Both the position numbers and the translations under genes were made by a program. Shown here piece after piece: positions 37,968-47,926 of a stretch of DNA of 50,229 bases. Positions within the stretch are counted from its first letter, which is position 1; every line of letters starts with the position of its first letter. The notes beneath the pieces were generated by a model. That model searched no databases. It was not told where the DNA came from and saw only the letters and a program-made list of their open reading frames with translations. The stretch comes from a virus (taxonomy: Duplodnaviria > Heunggongvirae > Uroviricota > Caudoviricetes): the IMG/VR virus record IMGVR_UViG_2718217713_000003; one strand, 5' to 3'.

Positions 37968-40631
37968 ATGGGTAAAGGCAGCAGTAAGGGGCATACCCCG
38001 CGCGAAGCGAAGGACAACCTGAAGTCCACGCAGCTGCTGAGTGTGATCGATGCCATCAGCGAAGGGCCGGTTGAAGGTCCGGTGGATGGATTAAAAAGCG
38101 TGCTGCTGAACAGTACGCCGGTGCTGGACAGTGAGGGGAATACCAATATATCCGGCGTCACGGTGGTGTTCCGGGCCGGTGAGCAGGAGCAGACACCGCC
38201 GGAGGGATTTGAATCCTCCGGCTCCGAGACGGTGCTGGGTACGGAAGTGAAGTACGACACGCCGATTACCCGGACCATCACGTCGGCAAACATCGACCGT
38301 CTGCGCTTTACCTTCGGTGTGCAGGCACTGGTGGAAACCACCTCAAAGGGGGACCGGAATCCGTCGGAAGTCCGCCTGCTGGTTCAGATACAGCGTAATG
38401 GTGGCTGGGTGACGGAAAAAGACATCACCATTAAAGGCAAAACCACCTCGCAGTATCTGGCCTCGGTGGTGGTGGGTAACCTGCCGCCGCGCCCGTTCAA
38501 TATCCGGATGCGCAGGATGACGCCGGACAGCACCACAGACCAGCTGCAGAACAAAACGCTCTGGTCGTCATACACCGAAATCATCGATGTGAAACAGTGC
38601 TACCCGAACACGGCACTGGTCGGCGTACAGGTGGATTCGGAGCAGTTCGGCAGCCAGCAGGTGAGCCGTAATTATCATCTGCGCGGGCGTATTCTGCAGG
38701 TGCCGTCGAACTATAACCCGCAGACTCGGCAATACAGCGGTATCTGGGACGGAACGTTTAAGCCAGCATACAGCAATAACATGGCCTGGTGTCTGTGGGA
38801 TATGCTGACCCATCCACGCTACGGCATGGGGAAACGTCTTGGTGCGGCGGATGTGGACAAATGGGCGCTGTATGTCATCGGCCAGTACTGCGACCAGTCA
38901 GTGCCGGACGGCTTTGGCGGCACGGAGCCGCGCATCACCTGTAATGCGTACCTGACCACACAGCGCAAGGCGTGGGATGTGCTCAGTGATTTCTGCTCGG
39001 CGATGCGCTGTATGCCGGTATGGAACGGGCAGACGCTGACGTTCGTGCAGGACCGACCGTCGGATAAGGTGTGGACCTATAACCGCAGTAATGTGGTGAT
39101 GCCGGATGATGGCGCGCCGTTCCGCTACAGCTTCAGCGCCCTGAAGGACCGCCATAATGCCGTTGAGGTGAACTGGATTGACCCGGACAACGGCTGGGAG
39201 ACGGCGACAGAGCTTGTTGAAGATACGCAGGCCATTGCCCGTTACGGTCGTAATGTCACGAAGATGGATGCCTTTGGCTGTACCAGCCGGGGGCAGGCAC
39301 ACCGCGCCGGGCTGTGGCTGATTAAAACGGAACTGCTGGAGACGCAGACCGTGGACTTCAGCGTGGGTGCGGAAGGGCTTCGCCATGTGCCGGGCGATGT
39401 CATTGAAATCTGCGATGATGACTATGCGGGGATCAGCACCGGCGGGCGCGTGCTGGCGGTGAACAGCCAGACCCGGACGCTGACGCTCGACCGTGAAATC
39501 ACGCTGCCATCCTCCGGTACCACGCTGATAAGCCTGGTTGACGGAAGTGGCAATCCGGTCAGCGTGGAGGTCCAGTCCGTCACCGACGGCGTGAAGGTAA
39601 AAGTGAGCCGTGTTCCTGACGGCGTTGCCGGATACAGCGTATGGGGGCTGAAGCTGCCGACGCTGCGCCAGCGCCTGTTCCGCTGCGTGAGTATCCGTGA
39701 GAACGACGACGGCACGTATGCCATCACCGCCGTGCAGCATGTACCGGAAAAAGAAGCTATCGTGGATAACGGGGCGCACTTTGACGGCGACCAGAGCGGC
39801 ACGGTGAATGGTGTCACGCCGCCAGCAGTGCAGCACCTGACTGCCGAAGTCACCGCAGACAGCGGGGAGTATCAGGTACTGGCCCGCTGGGACACGCCGA
39901 AGGTGGTGAAGGGCGTGAGTTTCATGCTTCGCCTGACCGTGGCAGCGGATGACGGCAGTGAGCGGCTGGTCAGCACGGCCCGGACGACGGAAACCACTTA
40001 CCGCTTCACACAACTGGCTCTGGGGAACTACAGGCTGACAGTCCGGGCAGTAAATGCGTGGGGGCAGCAGGGCGATCCGGCGTCGGTATCGTTCCGGATT
40101 GCCGCACCGGCAGCGCCGTCGCGGATTGAGCTGACGCCGGGCTATTTTCAGATAACCGCCACGCCGCATCTTGCGGTTTATGATCCGACGGTACAGTTTG
40201 AGTTCTGGTTCTCGGAAAAGCGGATTGCGGATATCAGGCAGGTTGAAACCACAGCACGCTATCTTGGCACGGCGCTGTACTGGATAGCCGCCAGTATCAA
40301 TATCAGGCCGGGCCATAATTATTATTTTTACGTTCGCAGTGTGAACACCGTTGGCAAATCGGCATTCGTGGAGGCTGTTGGTCAGCCGAGTGATGACGCA
40401 TCCGGCTATCTGGATTTTTTCAAAGGCGAGATAGGGAAAACCCATCTGGCTCAGGAGCTGTGGACGCAGATTGATAACGGTCAGCTTGCGCCTGACCTGG
40501 CTGAAATCAGGACATCCATTACGGATGTCAGCAATGAAATCACACAGACCGTCAATAAGAAACTGGAAGACCAGAGTGCAGCGATCCAGCAGATACAGAA
40601 GGTTCAGGTTGATACAAATAATAATCTGAAC
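37968..40631 (+). pseudogene. J: Tail tip host-specificity protein J, N-terminal portion (interrupted by IS insertion)
   Basis: [34 protein letters not shown]... matches lambda gpJ. Homology ends at ...VDTNNNLN (40631). The ORF then reads into the IS and stops at 40670. Confidence 0.9.
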
Positions 40632-40639
40632 TGTAGTGG

Positions 40640-42712
<2,073 letters not shown>

Positions 42713-42778: not shown

Positions 42779-43378
42779 ATGCGTAAACTTTATGCCGCCA
42801 TTTTGTCCGCAGCCATTTGTCTGGCCGTATCCGGTGCGCCTGCATGGGCGTCTGAACATCAGTCCACGCTGAGCGCGGGGTATCTTCATGCCCGGACGAA
42901 CGTTCCCGGCAGTGATGATCTGAACGGGATTAACGTGAAATACCGTTATGAGTTTACGGACACACTGGGGATGGTGACGTCATTCAGCTATGCAGGAGAC
43001 AAGAATCGTCAGCTGACCCGTTACAGCGATACCCGCTGGCATGAAGATTCCGTTCGTAACCGCTGGTTCAGCGTAATGGCGGGGCCGTCTGTGCGCGTGA
43101 ATGAATGGTTCAGCGCGTATGCGATGGCGGGTGTGGCTTACAGCCGTGTGTCGACTTTTTCCGGGGATTATATCCGCGTAACTGACAATAAGGGGAAAAC
43201 GCACGATGTGCTGACCGGAAGTGATGACGGTCGCCACAGCAACACGTCTCTGGCGTGGGGGGCTGGCGTGCAGTTTAACCCGACCGAATCCGTGGCCATT
43301 GATATTGCTTATGAAGGCTCCGGCAGTGGTGACTGGCGCACTGACGGTTTCATCGTGGGTGTCGGTTATAAATTCTGA
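42779..43378 (+). CDS. lom: Outer membrane protein Lom (Ail/Lom family)
   Basis: 199 aa with a signal peptide (MRKLYAAILSAAICLAVSGAPAWA) and beta-barrel-like alternating residues, ending in GYKF. It sits in the lambda lom position. Confidence 0.9.
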   Translation: MRKLYAAILSAAICLAVSGAPAWASEHQSTLSAGYLHARTNVPGSDDLNGINVKYRYEFTDTLGMVTSFSYAGDKNRQLTRYSDTRWHEDSVRNRWFSVMAGPSVRVNEWFSAYAMAGVAYSRVSTFSGDYIRVTDNKGKTHDVLTGSDDGRHSNTSLAWGAGVQFNPTESVAIDIAYEGSGSGDWRTDGFIVGVGYKF

Positions 43379-43404
43379 TTAGCCAGGTAACACAGTGTTA
43401 TGAC

Positions 43405-43430
43405 AGCCCGCCGGTTCAGGCGGGCTTTTT
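43405..43430 (+). terminator. Intrinsic terminator after lom
   Basis: AGCCCGCCGGTTCAGGCGGGCT stem followed by TTTTTT. Confidence 0.65.
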
Positions 43431-43442
43431 TGTGGGGTGAAT

Positions 43443-46400
43443 ATGGCAGTAAAGATTTCAGGTGTACTGAAAGACGGTGCAGGTAAACCGGTACAGAACT
43501 GTACAATCCAGCTGAAAGCAAAACGTAACAGCACCACGGTGGTGGTGAACACGGTGGCCTCAGAAAATCCGGATGAAGCCGGGCGTTACAGCATGGACGT
43601 TGAGTACGGTCAGTACAGCGTTATTCTGTTGGTGGAAGGATTCCCGCCGTCACATGCCGGGACCATCACCGTGTATGAAGATTCCCGACCCGGTACGCTG
43701 AATGATTTTCTCGGTGCCATGACGGAGGATGATGCCCGTCCGGAGGCTCTGCGCCGTTTTGAACTGATGGTGGAAGAGGTGGCGCGTAACGCGTCCGCGG
43801 TGGCACAGAACACGGCAGCCGCGAAGAAATCAGCCAGCGATGCCAGCACATCAGCCCGTGAGGCGGCAACCCATGCGACTGATGCTGCAGATTCAGCACG
43901 TGCAGCCAGCACGTCAGCCGGACAGGCCGCTTCGTCGGCTCAGTCAGCGTCTTCCAGCGCAGGAACGGCATCAACAAAGGCCACTGAAGCCTCAAAAAGT
44001 GCTGCCGCTGCAGAGTCCTCAAAAAGCGCGGCGGCTACCAGTGCCGGTGCGGCGAAAACGTCAGAAACGAATGCGGCAGCGTCACAACAATCAGCAGCCA
44101 CTTCTGCATCCACCGCGACCACGAAAGCGTCAGAAGCTGCCACCTCAGCCCGGGATGCGTCGGCCTCAAAAGAGGCAGCGAAATCATCAGAAACGAACGC
44201 ATCATCAAGTGCCAGTAGTGCAGCTTCCTCGGCAACGGCGGCAGGAAATTCCGCGAAGGCCGCAAAAACGTCTGAGACGAATGCAGATAACAGCGCACAG
44301 GCGGCAGCAGACTCACAAACTGCATCAGCAAACTCCGCGACAGCAGCCAAAAAATCAGAAACCAACGCGAAAAATAGCGAGGCAGCAGCAAAGAGCAGCG
44401 AAACCAACGCTAAAGCCAGCGAAACTAATGCTAAATCCAGTGAAACAAACGCGGCGAAATCTGCGGCGGACGCACTTAATTATCGCAACCAGGCGCAAGT
44501 AATTGTTGGCGATAATATCGGTCTTGGTGAAGTTGCCATGACCTGCACTGATATCTCTGTTGAGCCATCAGGTTATATTGGATTTGTCAGGATTTACATC
44601 TCAGCGAAAGGTTATCCATCAGTAGCGTCTAGTGCCGGTGATAATCTTATTTCTGGTTATATAGTTAGATCAGAAGTGTCAACAAAAAGATATTCCGGTC
44701 TATTTGTTGGTTCAGATACAAAATCATTGTATTCGTACATTTACAGCCAAAGTTCTGGCCCGCAATGGATACGTCATACCCGCAGAGATGAATTAAGCCG
44801 CTTTGGTCAAAATGAATCAACAACTCGTATGTATGGTCCAACTGGTGATCGTTTCTTTGAAATCCATACTAACGGGAGTTGGGGGGTTTATGATTCTTCT
44901 TCTGGACAATGGTCTCCGTTAGGTTTAGCCCAGGGCGGTACTGGTGGAAGAACTATCGAGCAAGCACGTGCGAACTTGCGGGTAATGTATGAGCAAAAAG
45001 CTGGCCTTGCTAATACTGACCTAAACACCCTTACCGGTGAATATTCTGGTTTCTATCAACAACCAACGAGCGCTTACGCAACAGAAGAATTAAATTACCC
45101 AATCGGTCTGGCGGGCGCTTTAATAGTGCTCCAAACGAGAGCCAACACTGCTTCTTCCTGCGTTCAGGTGTACTACCCTTATAATAATCCGGGAATTACT
45201 TATAGACGAATATATGAAGGAGGAAGCGGTACCTGGTCTGAATGGAAGAGAGATGTATCAACAGAAAGGGTTGAAGAGGGAAAAGAAACAACTTACGTAT
45301 ATTCTACGTATTCTTCAGGCGCACCACGCTTACAGGTTTCCAAATCTGGTTTGTGGGGTTGTCATAATGGCACTGGCTGGTTGCCATTAGCTGTTGGGCA
45401 AGGAGGTACAGGTGCGACAACAGTAGAAGATGCGCGAAACAACTTAAGTCTTGGCGAAAGTAGCGCAGTTAAATTTAAAAACCTTACTTTAACCGAAGCG
45501 CTCGACACGACATTAGGACTGCTTACAAAAACAGGACGAGACTGGAACACGCAGCATACTGATAACATTAATAAATTTATACCAATTGCAGGCAGTACAA
45601 ACGGCCCGGCAGGTTCTATGGTTCTTGGCGGCATTCATGTTCAATTTAGTAAAAATTATGCTGTGCAGTTCGGAGGCCGCAATTCCGGTTTTTGGGGAAG
45701 AACAATTGAAAATGGAACGACGCAGGAATGGAAGAAATTACTAACAGTAGACGATCTCAATTCATCTACCGATCTTGCTGTCAGGTCATTAACCACATCT
45801 AACCCGGTAAAATCTGGCGGAGGGCGAATTGATGTCCTTGGAAGCACGTCAGACTATAGCAAAATGGATTGCTTTGTACGTGGGTTTGATAGCACCGGTA
45901 ATTCTCTCGCGTGGGCGTTGGGTTCATCAGTCGGCGTAAGTAAGATGCTGTCGCTAAAAAATTTCTTTAGCGGAGCTGAGATACTGTTAAATGGTAATGA
46001 CGGCGCGGTTCAACTCAAAACAGGTGCTGTTAACGGGGCTAAAGCGCAGGCGCTCACTATCAACAAGGATGAGGTTAACTCAACTGTTGATTTAACTCTT
46101 ACAAAACAAACAGGGACTGGAAATCGTTTTGTTTTACAGAACTTAGGTAATACAGAACTATCATTTGCCGCAAAAGTATGGGGATCAAGTGATCGACAAA
46201 ACGTTTTTGAGGTTGGAACGTCTGCTGCGTATCTGTTTTATGCGCAAAAAACGTCAGCAGGCCAGTTGTTTGATGTAAATGGCGCTATTAATTGCACAAC
46301 GCTGAATCAGTCATCAGACCGCGACCTTAAAGACGATATTCTCGTTATCAGCGACGCGACGAAAGCAATCCGTAAAATGAACGGATACACCTACACGCTC

Positions 46401-46748
46401 AGGGAAAACGGGATGCCTTATGCTGGCGTTATTGCACAGGAAGTAATGGAGGCGATACCAGAAGCTGTGGGATCGTTTACTCATTACGGTGAAGAGTTGC
46501 AGGGACCAACGGTTGACGGCAATGAATTACGTGAAGAAACACGTTATCTGAATGTTGACTACGCCGCCGTGACGGGGTTACTTGTTCAGGTCGCCCGTGA
46601 AACAGATGGTCGCGTTACCGCGCTGGAAGAGGAAAACATAACGCTACGTAAAAATCTGGCAACAGCAGGCACCCGGATCAGCACTCTGGAAAATCAGGTA
46701 AGCGAACTGGTTGCACTTGTCGGGCAGTTAACAGGAAGCGAACATTGA
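43443..46748 (+). CDS. stf: Side tail fibre protein (lambda Stf-like N-terminus, C-terminal peptidase S74 / intramolecular chaperone domain)
   Basis: N-terminus MAVKISGVLKDGAGKPVQNCTIQLKAKRNSTTVVVNTVASENPDEAGRYSMDVEYGQYSVILLVEGFPPSHAGTITVYED matches lambda Stf. The C-terminus (SDRDLKDDILVISDATKAIRKMNGYTYTL...VDYAAVTGLLVQVARE) looks like the self-cleaving chaperone domain of endosialidase and T5-type fibres. Confidence 0.85.
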   Translation: MAVKISGVLKDGAGKPVQNCTIQLKAKRNSTTVVVNTVASENPDEAGRYSMDVEYGQYSVILLVEGFPPSHAGTITVYEDSRPGTLNDFLGAMTEDDARPEALRRFELMVEEVARNASAVAQNTAAAKKSASDASTSAREAATHATDAADSARAASTSAGQAASSAQSASSSAGTASTKATEASKSAAAAESSKSAAATSAGAAKTSETNAAASQQSAATSASTATTKASEAATSARDASASKEAAKSSETNASSSASSAASSATAAGNSAKAAKTSETNADNSAQAAADSQTASANSATAAKKSETNAKNSEAAAKSSETNAKASETNAKSSETNAAKSAADALNYRNQAQVIVGDNIGLGEVAMTCTDISVEPSGYIGFVRIYISAKGYPSVASSAGDNLISGYIVRSEVSTKRYSGLFVGSDTKSLYSYIYSQSSGPQWIRHTRRDELSRFGQNESTTRMYGPTGDRFFEIHTNGSWGVYDSSSGQWSPLGLAQGGTGGRTIEQARANLRVMYEQKAGLANTDLNTLTGEYSGFYQQPTSAYATEELNYPIGLAGALIVLQTRANTASSCVQVYYPYNNPGITYRRIYEGGSGTWSEWKRDVSTERVEEGKETTYVYSTYSSGAPRLQVSKSGLWGCHNGTGWLPLAVGQGGTGATTVEDARNNLSLGESSAVKFKNLTLTEALDTTLGLLTKTGRDWNTQHTDNINKFIPIAGSTNGPAGSMVLGGIHVQFSKNYAVQFGGRNSGFWGRTIENGTTQEWKKLLTVDDLNSSTDLAVRSLTTSNPVKSGGGRIDVLGSTSDYSKMDCFVRGFDSTGNSLAWALGSSVGVSKMLSLKNFFSGAEILLNGNDGAVQLKTGAVNGAKAQALTINKDEVNSTVDLTLTKQTGTGNRFVLQNLGNTELSFAAKVWGSSDRQNVFEVGTSAAYLFYAQKTSAGQLFDVNGAINCTTLNQSSDRDLKDDILVISDATKAIRKMNGYTYTLRENGMPYAGVIAQEVMEAIPEAVGSFTHYGEELQGPTVDGNELREETRYLNVDYAAVTGLLVQVARETDGRVTALEEENITLRKNLATAGTRISTLENQVSELVALVGQLTGSEH

Positions 46749-46922
46749 TATCCTTCAAGCCCTGAAGGAGGCTGTTCCTGGTACGTTCAGACTGTTGTTG
46801 AGCTGGAAATCGCAACGGAGGAAGAAACTTCGTTGCTGGAAGTCTGGAAAAAGTATCGGGTGTTGCTGAACCGTGTTAATACATCAGTAGTACCGGATAT
46901 TGAATGGCCAGCACTGCCGTAG
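46749..46922 (+). pseudogene. 3' remnant of a tail fibre assembly (tfa) gene
   Basis: The frame directly after the stf stop encodes ...[38 protein letters not shown], a typical Tfa C-terminus. No start codon or N-terminal part is present. Confidence 0.55.
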
Positions 46923-47019
46923 GGTAAAACATATAAATTCTATAATTAGATGTATCTTTCCATTTACGGCAAGGAAGGGGGCTTGGAAGACGTAAAGCAT
47001 CTCACACCGAGATTATTTT

Positions 47020-47610
47020 TTATATGTCAGGTGTCTGAAGTTTTGCTTTGGCTCTTAAAATGGTTTGCCGCGAGGTTTTGAATTCCCGGGCAATGGCACT
47101 TATACTTACACCTGACTTAATTCGTTCGAATACCACCTGTTTCTGTTCTTCATTTAACACAGGTGGTCGACCAAAACGTTTCCCTGCGCCGCGGGCTCTT
47201 ACTATCCCGGAATGAGTGCGTTCAAGTAAAAGGTCTCGTTCAAATTCAGCGACTGCTGAAATTACTTGCATCATCATTTTTCCTGTTGGACTGGTCAGGT
47301 CAATGCCACCCAATGCTAAGCAATGCACTCTGATACCTGTTTCGGTCAGTTGTTCCACTGTTTTCCTGATATCCATTGCATTACAACCAAGGCGATCCAG
47401 TTTTGTCACAATCAATTGATCACCACATTTCAGGCGAGCAAGCAACCGGTTAAAACCAGGACGCTCACTGGTTGCTGCTGAGCCGCTAATGTGTTCTTCG
47501 ATTATTTGCTGAGGTTTGATTTTAAAACCTGCACTTTCGATTTCCCGGCGTTGATTTTCGGTGGTCTGATCCAGCGTTGATATCCGACAGTAAGCAAAAA
47601 TTCGAGACAT
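47020..47610 (-). CDS. pinQ: Serine recombinase, Pin-like DNA invertase/resolvase
   Basis: 196 aa with an N-terminal catalytic serine motif ([10 protein letters not shown]), resolvase fold and a C-terminal helix-turn-helix. Confidence 0.85.
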
Positions 47611-47926
47611 AGTGAGACTCTATACGAAATTGGTGTTCATATCATAATGCATCTCAGAAAATAATTATGATTATTTTTGTGCATATTTGTATGTACACGT
47701 TCGAAAATAAACGAATGCGTATGCAACCCCGTAATTTTGGTGAGACCCAAAATCGATTTTGTGAAAAATGGCTTTAACTCGGTTTGTTTTTCGAGTTCCG
47801 GGCGGACTCAAGGAAGAAGAATAGTGTTGCGTGTTATTTTAACCAGATTTCAAGTTGTTTGGTCGTGGAAAAGTGGAGCAAAATGTTGTTAAAGTGGAAA
47901 AATGATAAAAAAGTAAGTTTATTATA

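Follow-up and report, generated by a model that had tools for sequence, protein, structure and literature searches.

How does a side tail fibre of the lambda type come to end in a chaperone domain of its own, and why is its gene followed, in the same frame, by a fragment of tfa, the gene of a separate fibre chaperone? The question is raised by positions 43,443 to 46,922 of the DNA analysed here (the window, 50,229 nucleotides; IMG/VR record IMGVR_UViG_2718217713_000003), which belongs to a Qin-type prophage in ydfJ. Based on domain searches, DNA alignments and comparisons with related phages, we propose that the locus very probably encodes a self-chaperoning lambdoid prophage fibre whose distal module entered by one replacement, and that the fragment, here called the stub, is a tfa pseudogene. 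Domain content, junctions, conservation of the catalytic pair and how widely the module occurs are direct observations, and the match scores for the fibre domains and the stub lie far beyond chance. A preliminary description of the locus, made from the letters alone, had named an open reading frame, its N-terminus, its C-terminus and a downstream tfa tail, and all four are in place. The features are as follows.

43443–46748, + strand: intact side tail fibre gene (stf), 1101 aa (open reading frame; RefSeq CDS WP_072025145.1; phrog_6578)
43443–44282, + strand: lambda-Stf-like proximal part, i.e. virion-attachment domain (residues 1–134) and Ala/Ser/Thr 'SETN' shaft (PF08400, lambda orf-401, DNA alignment)
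44283–46313, + strand: residues 281–957 of the mature fibre, comprising the distal shaft and a presumed receptor-binding part (mEp460 Stf comparison)
46314–46748, + strand: intramolecular chaperone / Peptidase S74 domain, residues 958–1101, 144 aa, and stop codon (PF13884, homologue alignment)
46749–46784, + strand: 36-nt spacer after the stf stop (2 of 36 columns vary across seven loci; no tfa homology)
46785–46922, + strand: tfa pseudogene stub, the last 45 codons and TAG, without start codon or N-terminal domain (PF02413, RefSeq)
47020–47610, − strand: pinQ serine invertase gene (PF00239, PF02796, RefSeq pinQ)

A lambda-like stem and a distal S74 module

The stf frame runs from an ATG at 43443 to a TGA at 46746–46748 without interruption over 1101 codons. 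The preliminary description had the same frame at a length of 1103 residues, counted from a GTG at 43437, whereas RefSeq places the start at 43443. The RefSeq product is named 'prophage tail fiber N-terminal domain-containing protein', and the tail fibre family phrog_6578 matches it along its full length (1247 bits); an NCBIfam scan of the fibre and the stub returned no family at E ≤ 0.01.

The N-terminal anchoring domain of lambda-type Stf proteins is present, as PF08400 (phage_tail_N) aligns to residues 1–134 along its entire length of 134 positions (E = 4.5e-72; 240.8 bits where 26.6 is the cut-off). The gene position is likewise that of a lambda stf, with J (split by an IS3-family element), lom and stf in a full lambda-like head and tail cluster. 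Lambda orf-401 is 87% identical to residues 1–284, i.e. the likeness to lambda Stf noted earlier holds, but it extends over ~280 residues and not 70. The Ala/Ser/Thr-rich 'SETN' region lies mostly inside this part, and lambda Stf has such a region too. Swap junctions were placed by DNA alignment against lambda, PhiR42_1 and intact tfa genes; on the left side, homology to the stf genes of lambda and PhiR42_1 stops at ~44282, after ...KTSETN, at residue 280. For PhiR42_1 stf the DNA alignment replaced BLASTP, which, among the alignments listed, gave low-complexity matches only and not the expected N-terminal match.

The distal part is a mosaic relative to the Stf of phage mEp460. A first local alignment (residues 1–514) is near-identical to residue ~355 and divergent beyond, no alignment was returned for residues 515–676, and a second (residues 677–1101) is divergent to ~765 and then free of differences over the last ~335 residues. 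In a profile search against the PDB, residues ~905–955 match a domain of T4 gp34 (E = 2.8e-9), and the domain search detected no enzymatic (sialidase) domain in the fibre.

For the C-terminus, the resemblance to Peptidase S74 proposed in the preliminary description was confirmed by domain search, which returned PF13884 at residues 958–1009 (E = 8.6e-12, 45.6 bits) above the curated gathering cut-off of 22. The serine and the lysine five residues on that mark this family are found as S958 and K963 in SSDRDLK; S958, D959, L962 and K963 do not vary among 22 homologues (53–95% identity), and Ser958 is the predicted scissile residue with Lys963 as its predicted activator. The stretch SSDRDLKDDI aligns to SSDRRIKKDI of phage S16 gp37 (PDB 6f45). 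In T5 pb1, the equivalent pair is Ser1264/Lys1269, the S1264A substitution blocks cleavage, and the chaperone comprises 133 residues (PMC4690869). In the comparison with T5 and K1 fibres that had been suggested, the Ser-Lys spacing is as in pb1, and a phmmer search of the PDB did not reach pb1 or endoNF. An AlphaFold monomer of residues 760–1101, computed with the 22-sequence alignment, has a mean pLDDT of 56, a pTM of 0.27 and values below 50 over the S74 core, a long C-terminal helix being the sole confident part. Foldseek of this poor model against the PDB retrieved T4 gp34 only weakly (E = 0.04) and no solved chaperone domain at a significant level. The model counts neither for nor against the chaperone fold, a mixed alpha-beta part with a trimeric coiled coil, which is backed by sequence only.

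The tfa stub and the origin of the module

The spacer behind stf, which arrived with the S74 module, contains a hairpin (CCTTCA-AGCCC-TGAAGG, 46752–46768) and an AAGGAGG motif without a start codon downstream; a terminator scan 3' of stf found none. The stf frame continues after the TGA for 57 codons to a TAG at 46920–46922, and the final 45 of these are Tfa. They correspond to positions 87–130 of the 131 in PF02413 (Caudo_TAP; E = 8.5e-18), are 80% identical to residues 147–191 of the 191-aa Tfa of PhiR42_1 and are annotated in RefSeq as pseudogene RG33_RS25445 ('incomplete; missing N-terminus'). The stub is hence not a complete Tfa, which would have a start codon and ~190 residues, among them an N-terminal fibre-binding domain; this agrees with the in-frame C-terminal tail lacking its N-terminal part that had been described. 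Neither of the outcomes that would have spoken against that description, a missing S74 domain or a downstream frame matching something other than Tfa, was encountered. From 46785/46786 onward the DNA is again homologous to complete tfa genes (tfaQ, tfaR, the tfa of lambda), and the stub is ~86–91% identical to thousands of tfa genes.

The distal module is present in 818 of 5426 complete E. coli genomes (~15%) at several integration sites, and the stub is attached to it in ~800 of them (junction covered in 802). Across seven loci, the 3' end of stf, the spacer and the start of the stub vary in 4 of 126 columns, whereas the remainder of the stub varies in 40 of 94 and comprises five different tfa-type tails; the flanks downstream of the stub are unrelated. 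The near-invariant left side of the stub junction and the mosaic 3' part together suggest that the replacement happened once, in an ancestor, and that recombination then took place repeatedly within the stub. The module swap of the preliminary description can be placed on junctions in the DNA, but redundancy and then gradual decay of tfa is not what these alignments suggest. Since one near-invariant junction is common to all copies, a single event is favoured, in which tfa would have lost its 5' three-quarters at the same time as the distal stf was removed. Sharing of the stf frame by the stub carries no independent weight, as its prior is one in three and it is inherited from that single junction.

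Because the stub is the conserved sequence that comes first after the hypervariable fibre tip, we tentatively consider, as a possibility with the odds somewhat against it, that it acts as a portable right-hand homology arm for swapping S74 and Tfa-dependent cassettes among lambdoid prophages. The five tfa tails in seven loci, set against the near-invariant left junction, are compatible with this role which, if true, would help explain how far the cassette has reached in E. coli. Alternatively, the stub may persist without selection, simply not lost yet.

Proposed fibre mechanism and competing explanations

We propose that the distal ~820 residues are a foreign module on a lambda Stf stem of ~280 residues, ending in the 144-residue S74 chaperone. 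The module would have replaced part of an stf-tfa-pin locus, with the left crossover within the KTSETN repeat at ~44283 and the right end joined illegitimately within tfa at 46785. Distal stf and tfa codons 1 to ~146 would thereby have been deleted, leaving 45 promoterless codons without a start, which would later have become a homology patch for recombination owing to their identity with so many tfa genes. In the fibre, the C-terminal chaperone domains would align three chains and template the trimeric distal part, by analogy to K1F endosialidase and T5 pb1. After correct folding, Lys963-activated Ser958 would cut between residues 957 and 958, and departure of the chaperone would expose the receptor-binding tip, so that the fibre would fold without a separate Tfa protein. 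Cleavage, Tfa independence and the order of events are what we infer from the locus. The plaques formed by mEp460, Ayreon and PhiR70_1, which carry such fibres, are no proof of fibre assembly, as lambda PaPa is reportedly viable without side fibres, and Tfa from another prophage may serve the fibre in trans.

Three other explanations were weighed. The IS3-family element in J leaves the prophage defective, so that no infective particles can be made in this strain; rzpQ is also frameshifted, and several genes are pseudogenes. The fibre gene could thus be a decaying relic, with an S74 domain that has lost cleavage or a product that has ceased to bind anything. Many copies of the module in other genomes are indeed shortened, annotated as 'tail fiber domain-containing protein' or 'pyocin knob domain-containing S74 family peptidase', and some of these are flagged as pseudogenes. 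The copy studied here, however, has an unbroken frame of 1101 codons, no differences from mEp460 Stf over its last ~335 residues and predicted catalytic residues that are intact and invariant, which makes the relic reading unlikely. It is very unlikely that the stub is alive, i.e. that the conserved C-terminal oligomerisation segment of Tfa is produced through TGA readthrough or an internal start and aids fibre assembly. The stub is in frame with stf, open to the natural tfa stop in seven of seven loci, preceded by the AAGGAGG motif in the spacer and kept in ~800 genomes. Yet no ATG, GTG or TTG lies at a usable distance past that motif and no ORF is listed there, the in-frame state descends from a single junction, and an open frame of 45 codons is expected if the variants came by recombination from working tfa genes. 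Moreover, a readthrough product would leave together with the cleaved chaperone domain, and what lies downstream of a more distant S74 fibre, located at the Rac site, is a hairpin followed by a T-run and no tfa sequence of any kind.

The third explanation concerns pinQ, which lies 97 nt past the stub on the opposite strand. In Gin/Cin/Pin systems, the segment that encodes the C-terminus of the tail fibre is flipped along with tfa-like genes, and pin normally comes after stf-tfa in Qin/Rac-type prophages; the stub could therefore be the remnant of an inverted alternative fibre/tfa cassette in a degenerate Pin-controlled switch. The stub is, however, collinear with stf, in the position and orientation of the intact tfa of PhiR42_1 (order stf-tfa-pin), and mEp460, Ayreon and PhiR70_1 have the stub with no recombinase gene annotated in the 2.5–3 kb examined downstream. 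A search for gix/pix-like crossover sites with the pattern AAACCNNGGTTT, one mismatch permitted, gave three matches, a count not above chance expectation, none within ~4.7 kb of the stub or pinQ, and positions 43300–47700 contain short, weak inverted repeat pairs but no long ones. As the inverted crossover sites flanking fibre/tfa segments that characterize a Gin/Pin-type switch were not found near the stub or pinQ, this idea, which we regard as hardly credible, was dropped; pinQ is an orphan here.

With the self-chaperoning fibre and its tfa pseudogene as the preferred reading, the significance is mostly bookkeeping, with two modest uses in fibre engineering and as a recombination marker. The junctions, at ~residue 280 in the KTSETN repeat and in the conserved tfa 3' end, are natural splice points on the lambda Stf stem and could guide the design of delivery particles derived from lambda that lack a chaperone gene. 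The stub, in turn, is a clean, datable marker of one replacement and of later prophage recombination.

Comparison with known tail fibre systems

Both ways of folding a fibre, with an S74 chaperone of its own or with a separate Tfa, are textbook knowledge. The architecture found here and the tfa stub are already known in that RefSeq annotates both parts, including the hybrid as 'prophage tail fiber N-terminal domain and S74 family endopeptidase-containing protein'. Our literature searches found no paper on an S74-type lambdoid Stf or the tfa stub, and an Eligo preprint on lambda Stf chimeras is silent on chaperones. The BASEL paper describes related phages that alternate between intramolecular-chaperone and Tfa fibre types.

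The closest systems are the plaque-forming lambdoid phages mEp460 (JQ182728, mEp460_020), Ayreon and PhiR70_1, whose fibres likewise combine a PF08400 N-terminus with a Peptidase_S74 C-terminus and are followed by the spacer and stub, with no annotated tfa. The mEp460 fibre is ~100 residues longer, with the middle (~355–765) divergent between the near-identical proximal and the identical C-terminal part, and the two loci differ from the 3' end of the stub onwards, with DinI-like and integrase genes in mEp460 and pinQ here. T5 pb1 and K1F endosialidase share the C-terminal chaperone of ~130–145 residues with its scissile serine and a lysine five residues on, but have no detectable sequence similarity to our fibre beyond this domain and differ in N-terminal attachment domain and phage type. 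S16 gp37, whose chaperone segment aligns across the cleavage motif, and T4 gp34, a domain of which resembles the 50 residues preceding the predicted cleavage site, are similar in local domains only, being myovirus long tail fibres of another overall architecture. The Tfa-dependent Stf of PhiR42_1, in contrast, contains Phage_fiber_2 and Collar domains but none of the S74 type, and is accompanied by a complete tfa encoding 191 aa. In lambda (Ur-lambda stf, orf-401/orf-314; tfa, orf-194), stf follows J and lom as here, and the 3' end of tfa matches the stub. Its distal fibre, however, lacks an S74 domain and relies on Tfa, a separate protein of 194 aa, whereas in the prophage studied here the distal two-thirds have been replaced and 45 codons of tfa are left.

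Fibre architecture and the C-terminal chaperone domain

Based on domain searches, DNA alignments and genome comparisons, we propose that this locus encodes a side tail fibre (Stf) with its own chaperone, acquired through an exchange that displaced the gene of the separate tail fibre assembly protein (Tfa). According to the domain, junction and linkage results, the preliminary description was essentially right in both observation and interpretation. The locus is organized as follows.

43443-46748 (+): stf, from ATG 43443 to TGA 46746-46748, 1101 aa
46150-46310 (within stf): gp34-like stretch, residues about 905-955, just before the predicted cleavage site
36 nt between the stf stop and the tfa homology: spacer without tfa homology
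46785-46922 (+): tfa stub, whose frame runs 57 codons from the stf stop to TAG 46920-46922, in the same frame as stf

Pfam assigns the prophage tail fibre N-terminal domain (PF08400) to residues 1-134 (E 4.5e-72), and residues 1-284 share 87% identity with lambda orf-401 in BLASTP. The lambda-like region, described earlier as 70 residues, is thus genuine but four times longer, and includes most of the Ala/Ser/Thr 'SETN' region. PHROGs assigns the full-length protein to phrog_6578 (1247 bits), a family of tail fibres in the same length class. The motif 'W..PL...GGTG......AR.NL' occurs twice, at about 44870-44985 and about 45360-45450 (residues about 478-514 and 640-670); as a single segment of mEp460 Stf aligns to both copies, a shaft or knob unit seems to have been duplicated within the fibre.

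The S74-like C-terminus noted previously is confirmed by a match to Peptidase_S74 (PF13884) on residues 958-1009 (E 8.6e-12), which scores 45.6 bits where the gathering threshold is 22. The match opens with N955-Q-S-S958-D-R-D-L-K963. When the distal 342 residues are aligned with 21 E. coli homologues (53-95% identity), S958, D959, L962 and K963 do not vary. The Ser-to-Lys spacing is that of T5 pb1, where Lys1269, five residues on, activates the scissile Ser1264, S1264A abolishes cleavage and the released chaperone comprises 133 residues (PMC4690869), compared to 144 (958-1101) predicted here. In phmmer searches of the PDB, SSDRDLKDDI is matched by SSDRRIKKDI in the gp37 fibre of phage S16 (6f45), and a profile from the homologue alignment finds S16 gp37 at E 7.5e-8 as well as a weak match to MYRF, an S74 relative from eukaryotes (E 0.049). 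By profile, the 50 residues ahead of the cleavage motif resemble a domain of T4 gp34, the proximal long tail fibre (E 2.8e-9). Related truncated copies carry the RefSeq label 'pyocin knob domain'. An AlphaFold monomer model has a mean pLDDT of 56, and below 50 across the S74 core, and Foldseek with this low-confidence model returned nothing significant for that part. On sequence grounds, there is good evidence that the S74 domain works.

By analogy with the S74 family members K1F endosialidase and T5 pb1, three C-terminal domains would trimerise and act as a template for the distal fibre, the right fold bringing Ser958 beside Lys963. The chain would then be cut ahead of Ser958, departure of the chaperone exposing the tip, and Tfa would not be required for this fibre.

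Junctions of the exchange and history of the stub

On the left side, the DNA runs collinear with both lambda and PhiR42_1, a phage whose Stf depends on Tfa, until 44282, the end of a K-T-S-E-T-N repeat unit (residue 280), and then departs; mEp460 keeps following the window sequence past this point. On the right side, the sequence becomes homologous to intact tfa genes at 46785/46786, in comparisons with lambda tfa, PhiR42_1 tfa and the tfaQ and tfaR copies of thousands of genomes. Compared with a locus of the lambda type, a segment of about 2.5 kb (44283-46784) stands in for distal stf and the first ~146 tfa codons, in agreement with the module swap initially suggested. The final 45 codons of the post-stf frame match positions 87-130/131 of Caudo_TAP (PF02413; E 8.5e-18) and share 80% identity with the PhiR42_1 Tfa (191 aa) over its residues 147-191, i.e. 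an in-frame Tfa C-terminal tail without N-terminal part, as first reported. The spacer holds a 6-bp hairpin, CCTTCA-AGCCC-TGAAGG (46752-46768), overlapped by AAGGAGG, a strong Shine-Dalgarno-like motif that no start codon follows (whole element 46752-46771). The latter may be the orphaned ribosome-binding site of a donor gene formerly located 3' of the fibre.

Seven loci were compared across the stub: the present one, those of three phages and those of three further prophages inserted at different sites. From 49 nt before the end of stf, through the spacer, to nt 41 of the stub, 4/126 columns are variable, versus 40 in the other 94 nt of the stub, where the tfa-type C-terminal tails and their stop positions are of five different kinds; beyond the stub, the DNA is unrelated from context to context. 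As the left part is near-invariant while the stub remainder and flanks vary, the pattern favours a single replacement event rather than redundancy and slow decay. The swap itself would have displaced tfa, and the deletion through redundancy put forward in the preliminary description is the less favoured course. In the simplest reading of these alignments, one ancestral illegitimate join would have occurred on the left side; later, while the cassette travelled among prophages, the stub would have undergone repeated homologous recombination with the various tfa genes resident there.

The host prophage and alternative readings

Window 43300-47700 is present with 100% identity in the chromosome of a cow strain of E. 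coli, C11 (NZ_CP010133.1), and according to RefSeq annotation one lambdoid prophage in ydfJ (Qin site) makes up nearly the entire window. It carries integrase, exonuclease, dicB/dicA/dicC, relBE, hokD, antiterminator, cold-shock genes and a lysis cassette, and a complete lambda-like head and tail cluster is followed by J, lom, stf, the tfa pseudogene, pinQ, ydfK and the ydfJ 3' part. Window 1-48200 represents a near full-length Qin-type prophage in which the familiar K-12 Qin genes are all present (dicB, dicA, dicC, relBE, hokD, cspB/F/I, ydfK, pinQ). K-12 Qin presumably lacks the intact-looking head and tail genes found here, and this prophage may display the state of Qin prior to decay.

37968-40670: J 5' fragment
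about 40640-41853: IS3-family element splitting J, transposase ORFs on the minus strand
41789-42712: J 3' fragment, still carrying the receptor-binding domain
47020-47610 (-): pinQ, serine DNA invertase gene adjoining the fibre locus

The prophage is defective: several early genes are pseudogenes, rzpQ carries a frameshift, and the split J means that infective particles cannot be made and that the C11 fibre cannot get into a virion. The fibre gene itself may also be decaying in this particular copy, but this is improbable, with an intact stf ORF and zero differences from the mEp460 phage copy across the last ~335 residues.

Similarly, it is unlikely that the stub is translated and functional. 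No usable ATG, GTG or TTG was found near the beginning of its frame, a readthrough product would go away together with the chaperone, and a distant S74 fibre at the Rac site has no stub whatever. That the stub is open and in frame needs no functional explanation, as this state is inherited from one junction and imported working alleles. The neighbouring pinQ raises a degenerate Pin switch as another origin of the locus, yet this too is unlikely, since the intact PhiR42_1 tfa and the stub are collinear, a search for gix-like crossover sites within about 4.7 kb and for long inverted repeats in 43300-47700 found none, and phages with the same stub have no recombinase gene annotated nearby. Rather, pinQ appears to be an orphan recombinase, with neither crossover sites nor an invertible segment detectable in its vicinity.

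Distribution and relation to known fibre loci

Among 5426 complete E. coli genomes, 818 contain a match to the distal module (45750-46790), and in 640 this match extends along 80% or more of the module. A probe of the S74 3' end, spacer and stub is at least 80% covered in 802 genomes, hence the stub is attached almost always. RefSeq gives many copies the name 'prophage tail fiber N-terminal domain and S74 family endopeptidase-containing protein', and all loci opened show the stub labelled 'tail fiber assembly protein, incomplete, missing N-terminus'. Features of this kind are widespread, well understood and covered by existing annotation; we add only the precise junctions, and evidence for the stub as the mark of a single event and, since then, a recombination patch.

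Three sequenced plaque-forming lambdoid phages (mEp460, PhiR70_1 and Ayreon) encode a PF08400 and S74 fibre followed by the same spacer and stub, without annotated tfa. As lambda plaque formation can do without side fibres, it does not prove fibre assembly that mEp460 and its relatives are viable. The distant S74 fibre, a 1611-aa ORF with 52% identity in the distal part from a lambdoid prophage at the Rac site (GCA_032761715.1, locus L012, 1698-6640), has a hairpin with a T-run directly 3', then a host gene, and tfa sequence is absent altogether downstream; it looks like an independent or older version of the self-chaperoning arrangement. In contrast, the Tfa-dependent Stf of PhiR42_1 has Phage_fiber_2 and Collar domains without S74, and a full tfa in an stf-tfa-pin locus. 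All loci examined are consistent in this respect, the S74 tip occurring without tfa and the sole non-S74 comparison fibre with full tfa, and related phages that differ in exactly this way have been described in the BASEL collection paper.
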